This document shows positions 1,119 through 8,666 of a stretch of 50,942 nucleotides of DNA, in pieces (position 1 is the first letter of the stretch; each line of letters opens with the position of its first letter). The DNA comes from an uncultured Thermoplasmata archaeon (GTDB lineage: Archaea; Thermoplasmatota; Thermoplasmata; Halarchaeoplasmatales; Halarchaeoplasmataceae): positions 1-50,942 of the forward strand of contig CAYNQI010000005.1 in the NCBI GenBank assembly GCA_964399335.1, read 5' to 3'. A program made the translations under genes and the position numbers. Below the pieces are notes generated by a model that did no database searches, was not told where the DNA came from, and saw only the letters and a program-made list of their open reading frames with translations.

Positions 1119-2447
1119 TTAGAATAGCCCCTCAACCTCGTCTAATCTATCTTTCAAAACAAAGATTATTACTTTATCACCATCTTTAAACTGCTGGTCT
1201 CCATGAGGTATTATAGTTTTACCCTCTCTTATGATAGCTCCAACAATTCCTTTTGTAGCCATTTCAGATTCTTTTAATGACTGCCCTTTAATTTTGGATT
1301 TTGGTTTCACATTCATCTCAAGTATGTATAGGTCACCTCCATGTATTGGAGTGGCCTGTAGAGGGTTTAATTCTTTAGCTAACCTCAGCATAGTTTTCGC
1401 AGTGTCAAGCTCAGGGGATGCAGCAAAATCGATTCCAACTGTTTCAATCAATGATTTCAAACCTAGTTCCCTAACAGTTGCGATGGTCTTTTCTACACCG
1501 TATATCTTTGCTAATAAAGAAACAAGTACATTAAATTCTTCCGAAGATGTTGCTGAGGCAAAAGCGTCCATACGTAATATACCTTCTTCTATCAATATTC
1601 TCTTATCCCTAGCATCACCTTTTAAAACTGTTACATTTTTCAGCATCTCGGCAGCATTTCTTGCTCTTTTTGTTGAATTATCTATAAGGGTGACAGAGAT
1701 TCCATTTTCTTGCAATTTTTTAGAAACGTTTATACCAATATCAGTAGCACCGATGATCATGGCATTATTTACTTGATTTTTTCTTTTACCAACTAATTTA
1801 ACCATTCTTTTCTCAGCTTTTCCTCCACTAGTGATCACAATCAAAGTGTCATTTTCCTTCAGCTTATCGTTACCATGGGGGACTAAAACACGGTTTTCTC
1901 TAATTATGGCACCTAAATTTACATTGGACGGAAATCGTATCTCTTTTATTTTCTTATCAACTATTTTAGATTTTTCTAAAACCTTAAATTCTAAAACATT
2001 TATCTTTCCACCCATAAATAGGTTCTTATCGATAGCTGCTGGAACATTAATAATATTAGAGATTTTATTTGCTATGATCAGCTCAGGAGAAACAGCATAA
2101 TCAACACCTATCTGTGAAAAACGTTTTGATACTGGTTTTGAAATATACTCTAAACCATTTATTCTAGCGATGGTATTACATCCAGCTGATTTTGCAATCG
2201 AACAAGCTACTAGGTTCGTTTCATTTCGATTAGTTACTGCAAAGAAGTATTTAGTAGATTTAATGTCGAGAGAATCTAATAGTTCTGGTCTTGCACCATT
2301 ACCATTTACAACTTTTACATCTAAAGCTTTTGCATTTTCACATGCCTTTCTACTTTTATCAACAATTATTACATCATGACCTTTCCTACGGATAGACTCC
2401 GCAAGTTCATACCCAACCTCTCCAGCACCGATTATTAAAACCCTCAT
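1119..2447 (-). CDS. trkA: Trk K+ uptake NAD-binding subunit TrkA (two RCK N/C pairs)
   Basis: Starts MRVLIIGAGEVG, has a second Rossmann motif AMIIGATDIG, is 442 aa and sits next to trkH. Confidence 0.95.
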   Translation of the reverse strand: MRVLIIGAGEVGYELAESIRRKGHDVIIVDKSRKACENAKALDVKVVNGNGARPELLDSLDIKSTKYFFAVTNRNETNLVACSIAKSAGCNTIARINGLEYISKPVSKRFSQIGVDYAVSPELIIANKISNIINVPAAIDKNLFMGGKINVLEFKVLEKSKIVDKKIKEIRFPSNVNLGAIIRENRVLVPHGNDKLKENDTLIVITSGGKAEKRMVKLVGKRKNQVNNAMIIGATDIGINVSKKLQENGISVTLIDNSTKRARNAAEMLKNVTVLKGDARDKRILIEEGILRMDAFASATSSEEFNVLVSLLAKIYGVEKTIATVRELGLKSLIETVGIDFAASPELDTAKTMLRLAKELNPLQATPIHGGDLYILEMNVKPKSKIKGQSLKESEMATKGIVGAIIREGKTIIPHGDQQFKDGDKVIIFVLKDRLDEVEGLF

Positions 2448-2469
2448 AATCTCACATTTTTGATTTTGT

Positions 2470-2751
2470 CTATAGCAGTTTAGTTAATATACTTTCATGT
2501 TTTCTTAAATTAACCTTATCTCCTTTAGATATATTTAATTTGTTTATATCTTGTTCTCTTAACATTATTCCCCCATCATCAACAAAATTATCTGAGAATG
2601 CACTTACCAATATATCTTTAGTTTTAGAGCTTACTATGGCTAACTCACCCTCATCTAAATTAAGTTCTTCAATTGTATTAGGGTTAACTCTAGCCCTTCC
2701 CCCGACCTTCACCGGACTTCTGTCCACCGTTAGAACTTTCTCTTTTGTCAT
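2470..2751 (-). CDS. Small stand-alone double-psi beta-barrel protein, Cdc48/VAT N-domain-like
   Basis: The pattern G-RARV-P-TIEELNL-EGE-A-V...V...D..V..G.I.L.......L.I.KGD.V.LRK resembles CDC48_N/DPBB. Pattern recognition only. Confidence 0.6.
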   Translation of the reverse strand: MTKEKVLTVDRSPVKVGGRARVNPNTIEELNLDEGELAIVSSKTKDILVSAFSDNFVDDGGIMLREQDINKLNISKGDKVNLRKHESILTKLL

Positions 2752-2796
2752 TAATAAGTTTAAAGAATAATAGATAGATAAGTATTTTTCTAATTT

Positions 2797-3492
2797 TTAT
2801 GACTTAGGTTTAGGATATCCTAAGGAGAGGTATTTATCCGCTGCTTCTTTGCAGTTTCTGCTTTCCCATACTCTTTCTATATCGGGGTTTAAAAGTAGAT
2901 TTTTAATTTCTTCAACCAGTCTTTTTAAATTACAAGAAAAACTCCAGTTTTCTATATAATCTATTTTAATCTCTCCTCCCTTTTTAGGTAATTTTATATT
3001 AGGATGGAATATATCGGTTTCCCATCTTATTTTTGGACGGAAATATGGATATGATCTAGGGATTTTCAATTCAAAAATATGCTGGAATGATAAAGCGATA
3101 TTGGAACCGATCTTTACTGGTCCGGGTGTATTAATAACTTTAAAAGTACATGAAAATGATTCATCGTCAAAATGTTCCTCTATAACTTCTACATCATTTT
3201 CCTTTATTATATCCATTTCATTTTTCAATCGAGATTCCCAGATTTGCTTGGGTAGGCGTATATCTTTATTTTTCCTTTCAATCAGCACAAAATCTCCTTC
3301 TTTGATATCTGTCCTTGACCATTTTTGATCCAAGCACAATTCAGATCCATTATACAATATTTTAATTTCCTCTTCAATATCCCAGTATGAAATGATTCCA
3401 GAGATACTTTCGATAATTTTTTCTGTAGGATCAATCCTTATTGAGATTCTGCTTCCCTCTCCTTGTTTTCCTATCTCGATATCAAAGGACAT
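2797..3492 (-). CDS. Ubiquitin-like (beta-grasp) domain fused to a UBC/E2-fold domain, with the catalytic Cys position occupied by Lys (UEV-like)
   Basis: aa 1-74 align by eye with ubiquitin (ISIRIDPTEKI...ILYNGSEL...DIKEGDFVLI). aa ~80-222 carry the E2 hallmarks YPYFRPKIRWETDIFHPNI, GEIKIDYI..W and LLLNPD. Confidence 0.82.
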   Translation of the reverse strand: MSFDIEIGKQGEGSRISIRIDPTEKIIESISGIISYWDIEEEIKILYNGSELCLDQKWSRTDIKEGDFVLIERKNKDIRLPKQIWESRLKNEMDIIKENDVEVIEEHFDDESFSCTFKVINTPGPVKIGSNIALSFQHIFELKIPRSYPYFRPKIRWETDIFHPNIKLPKKGGEIKIDYIENWSFSCNLKRLVEEIKNLLLNPDIERVWESRNCKEAADKYLSLGYPKPKS

Positions 3493-3512
3493 AGATTCGG
3501 TTATTGGTAATC

Positions 3513-3528
3513 ATTTATATTGTTTTTT
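3513..3528 (-). promoter_or_regulatory. BRE/TATA-like promoter for a probably leaderless Ubl-E2 transcript
   Basis: The minus strand reads AAAAAACA-ATATAAAT about 21 nt upstream of the ATG at 3492. Confidence 0.5.
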
Positions 3529-3728
3529 GTCTTTCTTAATCTTTAATTTGAACTTTTGATCTAGATTTAAGAAAGTTCTAAATATCAACAATCTCCAATA
3601 TCTTGTTTCCGAAAAGTATAAATCACCATAAACCGGTTGGAAAACCCCGACAATAGAAAGGTTTTTGAAGTGAATTCGCTTATAGAATTAATGAGGAATC
3701 AACCTTCGGATTGCGGAGATGAAATATC

Positions 3729-6700
3729 TTGGCTGGAAAATATCTAAAAGCAAGACAACTCGCAAAAGAGATTGAAAAAAAGGCAAAAAAAACTGCCGAG
3801 AAAAAGAAAAAAGCTAAAGAGGGTTTAGAACAGGCAGAGGAGTTGCTGGACACATCTGAAGATTTAGGTATAGATATATCTGAAGTTGATGGAATTATTA
3901 AGGATGCTCGTGAAGATTTTGAAGATAAGAAATTTGAAGAATCCTCTAAAAAAATAAATCAATGTTTAGATGGTTTACAAGAAATTTATTCTGAAAAATT
4001 AGATGAAATGATAGAGGATATCAAGGACCTTCATGATTATTTAGATCTAGAAATAGAAGAAACTGATTATGAGGAAATGTTAAATGAAGCAAATAAACTT
4101 TTTGACCAGGGTAAGTATAAAGAGTCTATTATTAAAACTGATGAAATTTTTACATACGTGAAAAAAGATGTTGAAGAGCTTTATGAAGATTGGTTATATG
4201 AAATTGAATCTAAAATAGAAACGTTAAGAACTTTAAATGGTGATATTAATAAATTTGAACAAAGTATATCTTCTGCCGAGGATTTATTGGACGAATTTGA
4301 AATTGAAAAAGGAAAGCAAGCTTTAGATTCATTAGAAGATGAGATTAACCGAGAATTAAAAAATATTGTTACCGGAAAGATTGAGGAAATCGAAAAGATT
4401 GAGGAATTATTGCGTAAAAATGGTATATCTACTAAAGATGTTGAGGAAACAATTAGCGAAATTAAGGCAAAAAATAAAAAAAATGAGTATGCTGAAATAG
4501 TCAATCTTTTTGGAAAAATCGAAAGAGAGCTCAGTGATAGGAAAGATGAGTTAGTATCCAAAATGGTTAAAAAATTAAGAGATGAGATTGAAAAGGCTAG
4601 AGAACTTGGAGCGCCTCAAAGTAAGATAAAAAGCATAAATGAAAAAATAAATGAACTACAAGAAATAGAAAATTTTGGTAATATCATTAATCTGATTGAT
4701 GAACTTTTTGAGAAGGTAGAAGAAGCTAAATTTCATAAAGTTTTGAAGACAATTGCAGAGTCTAGGGAGAATTTTATTAAAGCAAAGGAGATCGGGATCG
4801 ATATTACTGAACCTATGGATATTCTGAATAAGGCAAGAACTTCTTTGAAAGAAGGAAATCATAGAGAAGCTTTGGACTGGGCTAAAAAAGGAAGAAAAAA
4901 AGTTCGGGATATGGTAAAGGAACATGAAAAAACAGAAAATGAATTAGAAAAAATTAAAGAAATAACGGAAGGTTTGAATGAATTCGAACTAGATTTATCT
5001 TTTGTTGATGATAGAATTGAAAAAGCTGAAGAATATCTTGAACAAAAAGAATATTCTAAATCTAGAGAAATATTAGAAGAAATTGAAAGTGATATAGATG
5101 AAAAAGCTTATGAAAAAATTATGGAATTTGTCGAAGAATTTGAGGTAAATATATTGACTTTAGAAAGGATGGGTTTAGATAGCGGTGAATATACAGAGAT
5201 GCTTGAAGAGGCTATCGCTAATACCAAAACCATGGATTATATTGAGGCCGGTAAAATAGCTTTGAAAGGTAAAAATCAAATTTTAGAGAAAATTAAAAAA
5301 GAGATCGATTTTAAAATAGAAACTGTTTCCAGATTAGCAGATAATATAAAAGAATCGATAGATTCTGAAGACATTGAAGATGAATTAAAAAACGTAGAAA
5401 ATCTAATTGACAAGGCATTAAAAGAAAAAGACAAATCCAATTATAAAACATCCTATGATAAACTTCAAGAAGCAGAAGAGACGGTAAATGAGTGGCAAGT
5501 AGGAGAAGCTGATCAAAAGTATAATGAAGCAAAGGAAACTTTAGAATTAGTCGAAGATATAGACTTTGAGGGTATAGATATAGATGATTATCTGACCAGA
5601 TTAGAAGACGCTAAATTGGATATAGAGGGTAAAAATTATCCAGAGGCAATCCAAAAGATCGATGAAATACTTGATGATTTAAATGTTAAATTAAAAAAGA
5701 AATCAGAAGAGTTCTTTACGAATGCAAAAGTCGAGGTTGTGAAGGCAAAAAAGTCTGGTGTGGATATAAATAAGATGAGAGAGGAACTAATTGAATGTAA
5801 AAAAAATATAAAACAAGAAAATTTTACTAAGGCTATTAGTTTATCTGTAAATGTTGAAAAAAGAGCTAAAAAAGTTATAGGCGAACGTTCTGAAACTAAA
5901 AAACTCATCTCAGATCTAAATGAGACTGTAAGAAAATTAAGAGAATCAGATGATTTACAAAATTTAAAACCAGCTATAAAGTTACTCAAAGAAGCTAAAA
6001 GCAGTTTTCAACAGAGAAATTATGTTGAATCCAAAGAACTAGCAAACAAGACTAAGATGAAACTAGATGAGTTGAAAATGAAAAATGAATTTGAGACTTA
6101 TCACGATAACTATAAAAAGTTATTAAAAAGAGCTGATATAATCTCTGTAGATACTGAAGACATTCAAGATGAAGTCAATACAATTTTAAATAAAGCAGAT
6201 GGAAATGATTATAGTTCTGCAATAGAAATGATTCAAGAAATAAATGATGAATTATTAAATAAAATTAAAGATTCTGTAGAACCGAGGATAAATCATACTC
6301 AAGAAATTATAGAATCTGCTAAAGAAATTGGAATAGATATATCTTCCCAAGAAGTATTACTAAGCAAAGCTAAAGAAAATTTTGAAAATAATGAATTCAA
6401 GGCCGCCGTAGAGAAAATAAATGAATGTCAAAATGAGATCCAAGAGATTAGAGACCAAAGTAAAAAGGCCGCCCGGAGTGTGAAGAAGGCAAAAAATAGG
6501 TTAGAAGAAGCTATGGATATTCATGCAGATATATCAACTGCTAGAAAAGAATTACAAGTTTCTATGGAAGCAATAAAAAATGATGAATATGAAAAAGCAA
6601 TTGATACTGCTGAAAAAGCATTGAGCAGTATTCGATTAGCTGAGAGGAATAGAGTTGAAAAAATATTGTCTACATTTAAAGAAAAGATTAATGAGATGAG

Positions 6701-8114
6701 GGTAGATGGAGTAAACACATCATTTGCTGATAATTTAATAGCACGTGCTGAAAAAGCCAAGAAAAATGAAAATTATAAGGAAGCAATAAATCTAGCTATG
6801 CAAAGTGAAGGTGAGCTAGAAAGGATTGAGTTACAGCAAGATATTGCGAAAAGAAGTATCTCTACAACTACAAATAAATTGTCTAAGGCAAAAAACGAGG
6901 GAATGAATATTGAAAAACCAGAAAAGATTTTAAAAGAAGCAAAAAAAGCATATGATGGTGGTTTTTATGTCAAAGCTTTTGATAAAGCAGTAAAAGCTGG
7001 TGAGATACTAAATAATATAATTAAAGCTTATACAGAATCTAAAAGCATTTTAGATGATATCGAACAAGTATTAGATAAGTTAAAAGTTCTTGGTATGGAA
7101 GAAATTGAACTTATGGATAAATATTCAAAAGCTGTTGATGCATTTGAAAATGATAATTATGAAAAATCATATTCTTTAGCCAATAGGGCTAAAGAAACAT
7201 TAAGTAACGTCAAAAAAGAATTGCCAGACCAGATTTCAGACATGGAAGATGTTATCGATGATCTAAAATCAAAGAGAGATGTTGGTAAGTCTGAAAAGTT
7301 ATTGAACAAAGCTAAGGCTAATTTAAAAATGGGCAATATTTTAGAGGTTTTTGATCTTCTAGCTAAAGCTAAAGAGGAGTATGGTGGGAAATATTTCGAA
7401 GAGTATGAACAATTCATCGGGGAAGCATCAAAATTAGTTAAGAAAGCAAATAAATTTGGAACCGACGTTAGTGAGGCTAAAGAAATTATAAATGAGGCAA
7501 GAGGTTTAAGAGATGAAAATATCAAAAAAGCTAGTTTGAGGGCTAAAGAAGCTTTAGTTGAGATTGAGAAAATACTTGCACCTTACAGCCCTAATATTGA
7601 GGTAGAGATGAACGATAAACTTAGACTTGATACGTGGAATAAAGTGAATATGTCTGTAAAAAACACAGGCGGAGGAGTTGCTAAATCACCATCTATAAAA
7701 ATAAAAGGTGCAAAGAATAAAGATATAGAATTACCCTCTATGTTAAAAGCAAACGAAAGTTTTGAAACTGAAACAAAAATTAAACCTACTGAGGATAAAG
7801 TGATTATTGAAGGAGTTGGGACAAGAATTTTTGATAATAAAGATATATCATACCAATTAGAGATTGAAGTTACTGAAAGTAATTTTAAAATAATTGATGC
7901 AACCGGAAATGAAAAATGTGGTATATGTAAAGGTGAAATTAAAAAAGGTTTAGACGTTATTATTTGTGATTGTGAATCACCATATCATAAGTTGTGTGGT
8001 GAAAGAAAGGGTGAATGTCCAGAATGCGGGCTAGATTTTACCTTAGATGAGGAAGAAAAGAAGGAAGAGAAGGGAGGCAAAAAAGCCTCTAAAAGAGTAG
8101 CCCTTCGGATCTGA
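3729..8114 (+). CDS. Giant helical-repeat/coiled-coil protein with a C-terminal Ig-like (CARDB-type) domain and a prokaryotic RING-type zinc finger
   Basis: TTG start. About 1280 aa of E/K-rich repeats (A...G.D......L..A...), then a beta-rich segment (SVKNTGGGVAK), then C-x2-C-x12-C-x-C-x4-H-x2-C-x6-C-x2-C at 7917-8027. Confidence 0.78.
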   Translation: MAGKYLKARQLAKEIEKKAKKTAEKKKKAKEGLEQAEELLDTSEDLGIDISEVDGIIKDAREDFEDKKFEESSKKINQCLDGLQEIYSEKLDEMIEDIKDLHDYLDLEIEETDYEEMLNEANKLFDQGKYKESIIKTDEIFTYVKKDVEELYEDWLYEIESKIETLRTLNGDINKFEQSISSAEDLLDEFEIEKGKQALDSLEDEINRELKNIVTGKIEEIEKIEELLRKNGISTKDVEETISEIKAKNKKNEYAEIVNLFGKIERELSDRKDELVSKMVKKLRDEIEKARELGAPQSKIKSINEKINELQEIENFGNIINLIDELFEKVEEAKFHKVLKTIAESRENFIKAKEIGIDITEPMDILNKARTSLKEGNHREALDWAKKGRKKVRDMVKEHEKTENELEKIKEITEGLNEFELDLSFVDDRIEKAEEYLEQKEYSKSREILEEIESDIDEKAYEKIMEFVEEFEVNILTLERMGLDSGEYTEMLEEAIANTKTMDYIEAGKIALKGKNQILEKIKKEIDFKIETVSRLADNIKESIDSEDIEDELKNVENLIDKALKEKDKSNYKTSYDKLQEAEETVNEWQVGEADQKYNEAKETLELVEDIDFEGIDIDDYLTRLEDAKLDIEGKNYPEAIQKIDEILDDLNVKLKKKSEEFFTNAKVEVVKAKKSGVDINKMREELIECKKNIKQENFTKAISLSVNVEKRAKKVIGERSETKKLISDLNETVRKLRESDDLQNLKPAIKLLKEAKSSFQQRNYVESKELANKTKMKLDELKMKNEFETYHDNYKKLLKRADIISVDTEDIQDEVNTILNKADGNDYSSAIEMIQEINDELLNKIKDSVEPRINHTQEIIESAKEIGIDISSQEVLLSKAKENFENNEFKAAVEKINECQNEIQEIRDQSKKAARSVKKAKNRLEEAMDIHADISTARKELQVSMEAIKNDEYEKAIDTAEKALSSIRLAERNRVEKILSTFKEKINEMRVDGVNTSFADNLIARAEKAKKNENYKEAINLAMQSEGELERIELQQDIAKRSISTTTNKLSKAKNEGMNIEKPEKILKEAKKAYDGGFYVKAFDKAVKAGEILNNIIKAYTESKSILDDIEQVLDKLKVLGMEEIELMDKYSKAVDAFENDNYEKSYSLANRAKETLSNVKKELPDQISDMEDVIDDLKSKRDVGKSEKLLNKAKANLKMGNILEVFDLLAKAKEEYGGKYFEEYEQFIGEASKLVKKANKFGTDVSEAKEIINEARGLRDENIKKASLRAKEALVEIEKILAPYSPNIEVEMNDKLRLDTWNKVNMSVKNTGGGVAKSPSIKIKGAKNKDIELPSMLKANESFETETKIKPTEDKVIIEGVGTRIFDNKDISYQLEIEVTESNFKIIDATGNEKCGICKGEIKKGLDVIICDCESPYHKLCGERKGECPECGLDFTLDEEEKKEEKGGKKASKRVALRI

Positions 8115-8135
8115 TTTTACATGGGGTGATTAAAA

Positions 8136-8666
8136 TTGGGAATACTCATTCATGCTTGTTGTGCACCCTGTTTGACTTACACTTATGAATATTTCAAAGA
8201 AAATTTTTCTGAGGACCCATCTGTTTTGTGGTTTAATCCAAATATCCATCCCTTTAAGGAATATGAGAAAAGGTTAGGATCGCTTAAGAAATATCAGGGT
8301 GAGATGGATATTGAAATTATATATAAAGATAATTACGATTTAGAAAACTTTTTAGAAGGAGCGTTAGGGAAAAATCCTAGGTGTCAGTTTTGTTATAGAT
8401 TGAGATTATCTAAAGCAGCTGAGGTCGCAAAAGAAAATGGTTTCAATGCATATACCACTACGTTGACTATTTCACCTTACCAGGACCATGATTTGATTAA
8501 AAAAATAGGTCGAGAGGAAGGCGAAAAAATAGGTATTGAATTCATATATGTTGATCTTACCGATGGATTTTATAAAAGCCATGATATTGCAGACGAGATG
8601 GATCTTTATAAACAAGGATATTGTGGATGCATTTTCAGTGAGATGGACAGATACAAAAAAGAGTAA
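8136..8666 (+). CDS. queH: Epoxyqueuosine reductase QueH (DUF208) family Fe-S protein
   Basis: Motifs HACCAPC, NPNIHP..EY..R, RCQFCYRLRL, TTTL..SP and YKQGYCGCIFS. TTG start with an upstream GGGGTGA SD. Confidence 0.85.
   Translation: MGILIHACCAPCLTYTYEYFKENFSEDPSVLWFNPNIHPFKEYEKRLGSLKKYQGEMDIEIIYKDNYDLENFLEGALGKNPRCQFCYRLRLSKAAEVAKENGFNAYTTTLTISPYQDHDLIKKIGREEGEKIGIEFIYVDLTDGFYKSHDIADEMDLYKQGYCGCIFSEMDRYKKE

Follow-up and report, generated by a model that had tools for sequence, protein, structure and literature searches.

The window analysed here, a stretch of 50,942 nucleotides, is contig C5 (GenBank CAYNQI010000005.1, positions 1 to 50,942) of an 80% complete metagenome-assembled genome of an uncultured Thermoplasmata archaeon (G000; assembly GCA_964399335.1). 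Close relatives of this genome carry the label Candidatus Saliniplasma, in the order Halarchaeoplasmatales, and the DNA of the window was found again in soda- and salt-lake metagenomes. Four genes lie side by side on the minus strand: trkH (2–1135, running off the window), trkA (1119–2447), the gene for a stand-alone barrel protein of 93 residues, P0001 (2470–2751), and the gene for a ubiquitin-like (Ubl) domain fused to a ubiquitin-conjugating enzyme (E2) fold, P0002 (2797–3492; 231 residues). They are followed by a divergent spacer of 236 bp (3493–3728) and, on the plus strand, by the gene for a giant helical-repeat protein of 1461 residues, P0003 (3729–8114), and then by queH and the gene for aIF2-alpha. 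An initial annotation of this DNA had described three adjacent genes with ubiquitin-system folds around a divergent promoter region of some 235 bp; the genes, their coordinates and all three domain calls hold. It had also read the three as a single ubiquitin-like system. We consider it likely that they are instead three separately inherited units, among them P0002, which is dead for conjugation.

Contigs from independent soda- and salt-lake sequencing runs span positions 2139–3755 and 3726–8200, and the Ubl–E2 gene in them is identical to that of the window. Since no differences were seen in that gene, neither the layout of the locus nor the lysine codon at position 176 of P0002 is an assembly artefact; an assembly chimera was ruled out as the cause of either. 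Below, f1 denotes the Halarchaeoplasmataceae-like family of the window, g-numbers denote genera of f1, and other f-numbers denote other families of the class. L-numbers are loci from other genomes in their own coordinates, and P-numbers are proteins, P0001–P0003 being those of the window.

P0002 scored 49.3 bits on the Pfam UQ_con model (PF00179; cut-off 27), with a weak match to Rad60-SLD. Its AlphaFold 2 (AF2) model has a mean predicted local distance difference test (pLDDT) score of 89.8, and rather than modelling as unrelated folds, its two halves matched β-grasp and E2 structures. The N-terminal β-grasp Ubl domain comprises residues 1–77 (3262–3492, minus strand), which superpose on SUMO, ubiquitin and ISG15 with Z scores of about 12 and a root-mean-square deviation (rmsd) of 1.5–1.9 Å over 72–76 residues. 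The UBC/E2-fold domain comprises residues 80–231 (2800–3255, minus strand); residues 82–230 match E2 structures including UbcH7, UBE2D2 and UBE2K, with Z scores of 13–14 and an rmsd of about 3 Å over 130–138 residues. A search of NCBIfam gave no match to P0002, and the matches to P0001 and P0003 were noise.

The E2 domain retains the HPNI motif, which is invariant among its orthologs. At the catalytic position stands Lys176 (codon 2965–2967), aligned with the engineered lysine of Ube2K C92K. The same position is occupied by K, R, H, E, Y, W, S, G or N in the orthologs, varying even between genera, and by cysteine in canonical relatives; no alternative cysteine is conserved among the orthologs. 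Lys176 was considered as a functional active-site lysine and rejected, as the position is not conserved. Gly-Gly is likewise absent from the junction between the two domains, which reads ...LIERKNKD... in P0002 versus ...LIPDPEGG in relatives. The earlier description of a Ubl without a Gly-Gly tail and an E2 without its catalytic cysteine is therefore confirmed, with the catalytic residue variable in every ortholog, and the loss of both features supports the view that the protein is independent of conjugation. With these features lost, P0002 can be neither charged nor conjugated.

The rest of the E2 domain has been well kept. Helix 1, a PGP loop, a YPY...P segment, the HPNI motif and a W-S-F-S loop are conserved among the orthologs, and the W-S-F-S loop aligns with the W-S-P-A loop through which eukaryotic E2s contact RING domains. 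Orthologs occur in 20 of the 35 f1 genomes, with a frame of 222–232 residues intact in at least seven genera at 30–60% identity; the fusion gene was not found in the f1 genera g7, g8 and g9. The ratio of nonsynonymous to synonymous substitution rates (dN/dS) of the fusion gene is 0.13–0.22, an approximate value since dS is saturated. On the strength of the intact frame, this ratio and the conserved motifs, the Ubl–E2 gene is maintained under purifying selection, and its product is a pseudo-enzyme rather than the product of a pseudogene.

The ancestry of the two domains can be traced within the class. Sister families carry a four-gene operon, common in Thermoplasmata, in the order ThiF (the activating enzyme, E1), Ubl with Gly-Gly, E2 with cysteine, and JAB. 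This canonical operon encodes a ThiF-type E1 of 263–278 residues, a Ubl of 79–91 residues with the C-terminus PDPEGG, an E2 with the motif HPNI...GG-x-V-C-T-K-L-L that is 28–35% identical to that of P0002, and a JAB/MPN protease with an HSHPG motif. A 79-residue canonical Ubl ending in Gly-Gly is a homolog of the N-terminal domain of P0002 (E 6e-6). By scanning 1.84 billion protein cluster representatives, we found 13 further full-length fusions of the P0002 type (P0020–P0032), none with a cysteine at the catalytic position and none with Gly-Gly. P0002-type fusions group together as a single long-branched clade, with the fusion of genus g10 nested inside. Other Ubl–E2 fusions (P0041, P0063, P0075, P0078 and P0154) keep both the PDPxGG junction and the catalytic cysteine, and a JAB gene lies downstream of P0041. 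These arrangements grade from separate genes, by way of a processable Ubl-GG-E2(Cys) fusion, into the dead fusion, and the order of Ubl and then E2 in the canonical operon explains the fusion itself.

Orthologs of the operon-type E1 and JAB are confined to genomes that have the canonical E2, and none was found in the 35 f1 genomes. With or without the fusion, f1 genomes hold just a housekeeping ThiF of about 335 residues. No free Ubl ending in Gly-Gly was found in five f1 genomes searched with the canonical Ubl, the fusion itself being the sole match. As the initial annotation had noted, the window contains no E1 or JAB; no ThiF, Prok-JAB or JAB was found anywhere on this contig. The source genome has one ThiF (334 residues, contig C61) and one small JAMM protein at a contig edge (C98), and the eukaryote-type JAB (PF01398) was not found in it, at 80% completeness. 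The proposal that P0002 is a remnant paired with E1 and Ubl genes elsewhere is not supported by these searches, which covered 35 f1 genomes for operon-type E1 and JAB and five for a free Gly-Gly Ubl.

Related domains also appear in other arrangements. P0034 (L071 6548–8152; 534 residues) joins a cysteine-less E2 of the P0002 subtype (GGDVHLGYIENW) to an intact JAB/MPN protease and a PQQ-type β-propeller, and its gene adjoins a second UQ_con gene, a DZR zinc-ribbon gene and grpE-dnaK-dnaJ. Genus g8, which is without the fusion, has a locus (L049 5044–6004) with tandem genes for proteins of 166 and 152 residues that carry an N-terminal Ubl of the same type, also without Gly-Gly, and a C-terminal domain of about 80 residues that was not recognised; the neighbouring genes encode 733 and 482 residues.

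On the other side of the spacer, P0003 is composed of about 20 helical repeats with a period of about 62 residues and carries two compact domains and a conserved tail at its C-terminal end. The first is an Ig-like β-sandwich (7593–7898, plus strand), modelled by AF2 with pLDDT above 90, which matches generic Ig-like, CARDB, NBR1-FW and GAE domains with Z scores of 7–8.7. The second is a C4HC3 RING-type binuclear zinc finger (7917–8027, plus strand), which scored 30.5–33.7 bits on Prok-RING_1 (PF14446) against a cut-off of 29.1. It follows the pattern C-x2-C-x12-C-x-C-x4-H-x2-C-x6-C-x2-C, in which the seven cysteines are invariant and the histidine occurs in 18 of 19 orthologs. A profile of the orthologs aligns end to end with the RING-H2 domains of RNF165/Arkadia (E 1e-6) and also matches the PHD of Pygopus (E 5e-5). 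AF2 models the finger as a hairpin and a short helix with pLDDT of 85–89; the Foldseek and VIA-align matches for the C-terminal model were occupied by the Ig-like domain. Beyond the finger, a disordered Lys/Glu linker (pLDDT below 50), very variable in length and Pro-rich in some families, leads to the basic tail that closes the protein (S-K-R-V-A-L-R-I; 8085–8111, plus strand). Of 19 orthologs from different families, 17 retain the tail pattern K-R-V-A-L-[KR]-I, which is missing in two families; it may be a short linear motif for docking or membrane binding.

Full-length orthologs of P0003, 1440–1625 residues long, are present in 85 of the 151 sampled genomes and in 21 of the 27 families of the class. 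Public clusters of the protein are named just ‘hypothetical’ or ‘RING finger protein’, and in the ESM Atlas they appear as Thermoplasmatota clusters of ‘hypothetical protein’. UQ_con proteins occur in 75 of the same 151 genomes, and the two sets do not follow one another. The giant protein is found without an E2 in families f2, f10, f13, f14, f16, f17, f19, f22 and f25 and in the f1 genus g8, and an E2 without the giant protein in f6 (13 of 17 genomes) and f26 (3 of 3); in genomes with the canonical operon as well as the giant gene, the two lie on different contigs. The distributions of giant protein and E2 are independent; the giant protein, a cytoplasmic rod, occurs Thermoplasmata-wide with or without any E2. 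Prok-RING_1 genes are known to neighbour those for Ub, E1, E2 and JAB. This finger shows no such link, as the adjacent E2 is the dead one and is adjacent in one family alone.

Outside f1, the giant gene has conspicuous neighbours of its own. It lies directly downstream of smc-scpA-scpB in f15, f20, f22 and f25, co-directional and with gaps of 84–172 nt, and 11–40 nt downstream of ftsZ in f14 (loci: L038 5031–14718, L057, L061, L060, L065, L059, L040 5094–10948, L053 and L056). An unrelated gene, for an aromatic-amino-acid lyase, is an even commoner neighbour, in convergent orientation (14 loci), which points to inherited gene order. The adjacency to smc-scpAB and ftsZ may therefore reflect such order rather than a functional link, and a role of the giant protein in chromosome segregation or division is only a lead.

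The third protein, P0001 (2470–2751, minus strand), scored 31.5 bits on CDC48_N (PF02359), below the cut-off of 35.1. Its identity to the N-terminus of the 744-residue Cdc48/VAT of the same genome is 33% (E 2.5e-6), and against the Protein Data Bank (PDB) a profile of its orthologs retrieved just double-psi β-barrel (DPBB) and Cdc48-N chains, all weakly (E 0.004–0.4). These alignments point to a double-psi barrel of the Nn type of Cdc48/VAT. The protein ends after the barrel, with neither an Nc subdomain nor AAA modules. In structures of p97 with its adaptors, the site that binds UBX and Ubl domains is the cleft between the Nn and Nc halves of the Cdc48 N-domain.

The barrel gene keeps company with trkA and trkH (TrkA_N/TrkA_C and TrkH by their Pfam matches). 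In the window, the gap between barrel and trkA is 22 nt and trkA overlaps trkH by 17 nt; at 13 of 13 loci examined, the barrel lies 10–44 nt upstream of trkA-trkH on the same strand. It is present in all 35 f1 genomes, including those of g7, g8 and g9, where no E2 was found. The barrel of g7 faces the giant gene directly with no E2 between, and in g8 the giant gene is elsewhere; in g3, g4 and g6, one or two genes on the opposite strand are inserted between fusion and barrel. Because the barrel is tied to trkAH at every locus, also where the E2 is absent or elsewhere, it falls outside the Ubl module, and by gene order it would be the leading gene of the trkAH potassium-uptake operon. This linkage and the lone Nn half speak against membership of the barrel in a Ubl/RING system, as first proposed. 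It is a plausible fit that a salt-in halophile should link the barrel to Trk, and we regard the protein as a candidate accessory factor for potassium uptake by Trk in archaea adapted to salt. Most f1 genomes have one to three further stand-alone barrel paralogs elsewhere, at 29–39% identity (for example G011:C16:20716-20973, G023:C95:37724-37969 and G021:C109:5284-5538).

Conservation of the neighbourhood across Thermoplasmatota had been put forward as a check on the single-system idea, and it gave a divided answer. The block aIF2alpha-queH-giant / Ubl-E2 / barrel-trkA-trkH is syntenic across the whole of f1, and of the seven genera with the fusion, six have it head to head with the giant gene. 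The block is broken in g10, and the units are inherited separately. The head-to-head position is probably ancestral, given that the fusion of g10 branches from within the fusion clade. The g10 fusion gene (L019 8104–10491) is divergent from a gene for a Ras-family small GTPase, followed by one for a DUF835 (inactive KaiC-like) protein, and has mutL-mutS on its other side.

A single f1 fusion lineage has thus lost Gly-Gly, the catalytic cysteine and its E1 and JAB partners. Since the gene is under purifying selection and has preserved HPN, helix 1 and the PGP and W-S-F-S loops, we infer that P0002 acts as a non-covalent binding protein resembling a ubiquitin E2 variant (UEV). The Ubl linked in cis may allow it to resemble a permanently ‘loaded’ E2~Ubl. 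Eukaryotic biochemistry has established that E2 folds bind RINGs and that RINGs prefer the loaded E2~Ubl. For these reasons the likeliest single partner of P0002 would be the RING finger of the giant rod protein, whose gene is transcribed divergently. Direct contact between pseudo-E2 and RING, argued by analogy, is nonetheless doubtful, a tentative suggestion. It is more improbable still that Ubl-pseudoE2 is a hard-wired mimic of E2~Ubl docked permanently on the RING of the giant rod, such that a cascade has been turned into a non-covalent adaptor pair on a cytoskeleton-like scaffold.

Several observations weigh against this account. The suggested RING contact rests on adjacency inside one broadly syntenic family, and since the whole block is syntenic in f1, the adjacency of giant and fusion genes is not independent evidence. 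In g10 each of the three genes, for fusion, giant protein and barrel, is on a contig of its own and has other neighbours. The zinc ligands of the finger and its putative E2-contact residues (C-x-hydrophobic-C and C-P-x-C) are equally conserved in lineages without an E2, so the main role of the finger is not E2-dependent. Finally, with the source genome only 80% complete, the case for a lack of E1 and JAB there depends mostly on relatives whose genomes are more complete.

The strongest competing explanation keeps a maintained Ubl-pseudoE2 and assigns it another partner (the proteasome, Cdc48/VAT, a small GTPase module or another RING or zinc-ribbon protein), with the adjacency to the giant gene simply inherited. 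It draws on the position of the g10 fusion beside the Ras-family GTPase and DUF835 genes, far from the giant gene, and on the independent distributions and f1-wide synteny described above. However, six of seven fusion genera keep the fusion head to head with the giant gene despite insertions on the other side of the fusion, and the pairing with RINGs is the best-established interaction of the E2 fold. We hold such an alternative partner to be rather unlikely.

Very unlikely, in our judgement, is the scheme of the initial annotation, in which all three proteins make up a single scaffold, independent of conjugation, for the delivery of substrates to Cdc48/VAT or the proteasome. Its appeal lies in three adjacent proteins that all have ubiquitin-system folds. 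However, the barrel tracks trkAH everywhere, fusion-less genomes of f1 included, is split from the E2 gene by opposite-strand genes in three genera and has the Nn half alone. The giant protein, for its part, is far more widespread than the other two and distributed across the class independently of E2. A catalytic P0002 is more improbable again. Lys176 or a nearby cysteine would have to accept a Ubl activated by ThiF, or E1 and Ubl would have to be encoded elsewhere. The intact HPN, the 334-residue ThiF and small JAMM elsewhere in the genome, and the fact that engineered Cys-to-Lys E2s can be loaded with ubiquitin (title of PDB entry 6jb6) speak for it. Against these stand a catalytic position that varies among orthologs with no alternative cysteine conserved, a ThiF of the same type in f1 genomes with and without the fusion, and the searches that returned neither a Gly-Gly-ended Ubl (canonical query, five f1 genomes) nor a PF01398 JAB in the source genome. 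That the fusion gene is a decaying, functionless relic is barely credible: every catalytic feature is lost and g7, g8 and g9 yielded no copy, but the frame, motifs and dN/dS of the orthologs described above and the lack of variants in independent metagenomes argue otherwise.

UEV-type proteins are central to eukaryotic ubiquitin signalling and are the nearest functional analogues of P0002. In Mms2/Uev1a, in the UEV domain of Tsg101/Vps23 and in the Asgard UEV-Vps23, as in P0002, the cysteine-less E2 fold derives from an active E2; in UEV proteins it is kept as a non-covalent binding module, a role that P0002 may share by analogy. Unlike these proteins, P0002 keeps HPN, bears a fused N-terminal Ubl and has no match to the Pfam UEV model (PF05743) at an E value of 0.1 or better, a model on which a canonical E2 relative scores just 19.4 bits. 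P0002 appears to have arisen independently, inside Thermoplasmata. Its nearest relatives are the Thermoplasmata ThiF-Ubl(GG)-E2-JAB operons, in which both of its domains have homologs; unlike these, it is one polypeptide without Gly-Gly or cysteine and has no dedicated E1 or JAB alongside. Those operons are related to the experimentally reconstituted archaeal cascade of E1, E2, RING and Rpn11 from Caldiarchaeum subterraneum (PMC5654768), and their E2 clade is mentioned in passing in a preprint (bioRxiv 10.1101/2023.07.25.550441). The Ubl-GG-E2(Cys) fusions share with P0002 the same single-frame architecture of Ubl and then E2; they look like processable active precursors, of which P0002 would be the dead end-state.

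The finger of P0003 resembles Prok-RING_1 domains in scoring above the family cut-off and in its eight conserved ligands, putatively of cross-brace type. It differs in that it caps a 1461-residue rod and occurs in many genomes without E2, E1 or JAB; its spacing is PHD-like (C-x-C-x4-H), with no basic ‘linchpin’ residue after the last cysteine. P0001 aligns over its whole length with the Nn subdomain of the Cdc48/p97/VAT N-domain and, unlike that domain, stands alone, without Nc or AAA and tied to trkA-trkH. In the part of the literature that was searched, no paper describes the fusion, the giant protein or the barrel.

The P0002 lineage offers a natural series for the decay of a ubiquitin-type cascade into a pseudo-enzyme, outside eukaryotes and Asgard archaea. 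If a UEV-like protein containing its own Ubl has arisen independently in archaea, the passage from E2 to reader or adaptor would be shown to be an easy one. Were the RING contact real, structural studies would gain from this pair an E2~Ubl/RING complex that is minimal and free of conjugation. The assignment of the barrel to the Trk genes rather than to the ubiquitin system removes a false lead.

The spacer between the fusion and giant genes was aligned across eight loci from five genera and holds two separate putative promoters. Directed at the giant gene, and about 100 nt upstream of it, is a near-invariant pair of transcription factor B recognition element and TATA box (BRE-TATA; CCGAAAA-n-TATAAATC, about 3608–3625). 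A Shine-Dalgarno-like GGAGATG box and the invariant TTG start of the giant gene follow at 3715–3731. On the other side, the ATG of the Ubl–E2 gene is preceded, at a distance of about 25 nt, by a weaker A/T box that resembles a TATA box. The arrangement implies that transcripts of the giant gene would carry a conserved leader of about 80 nt.

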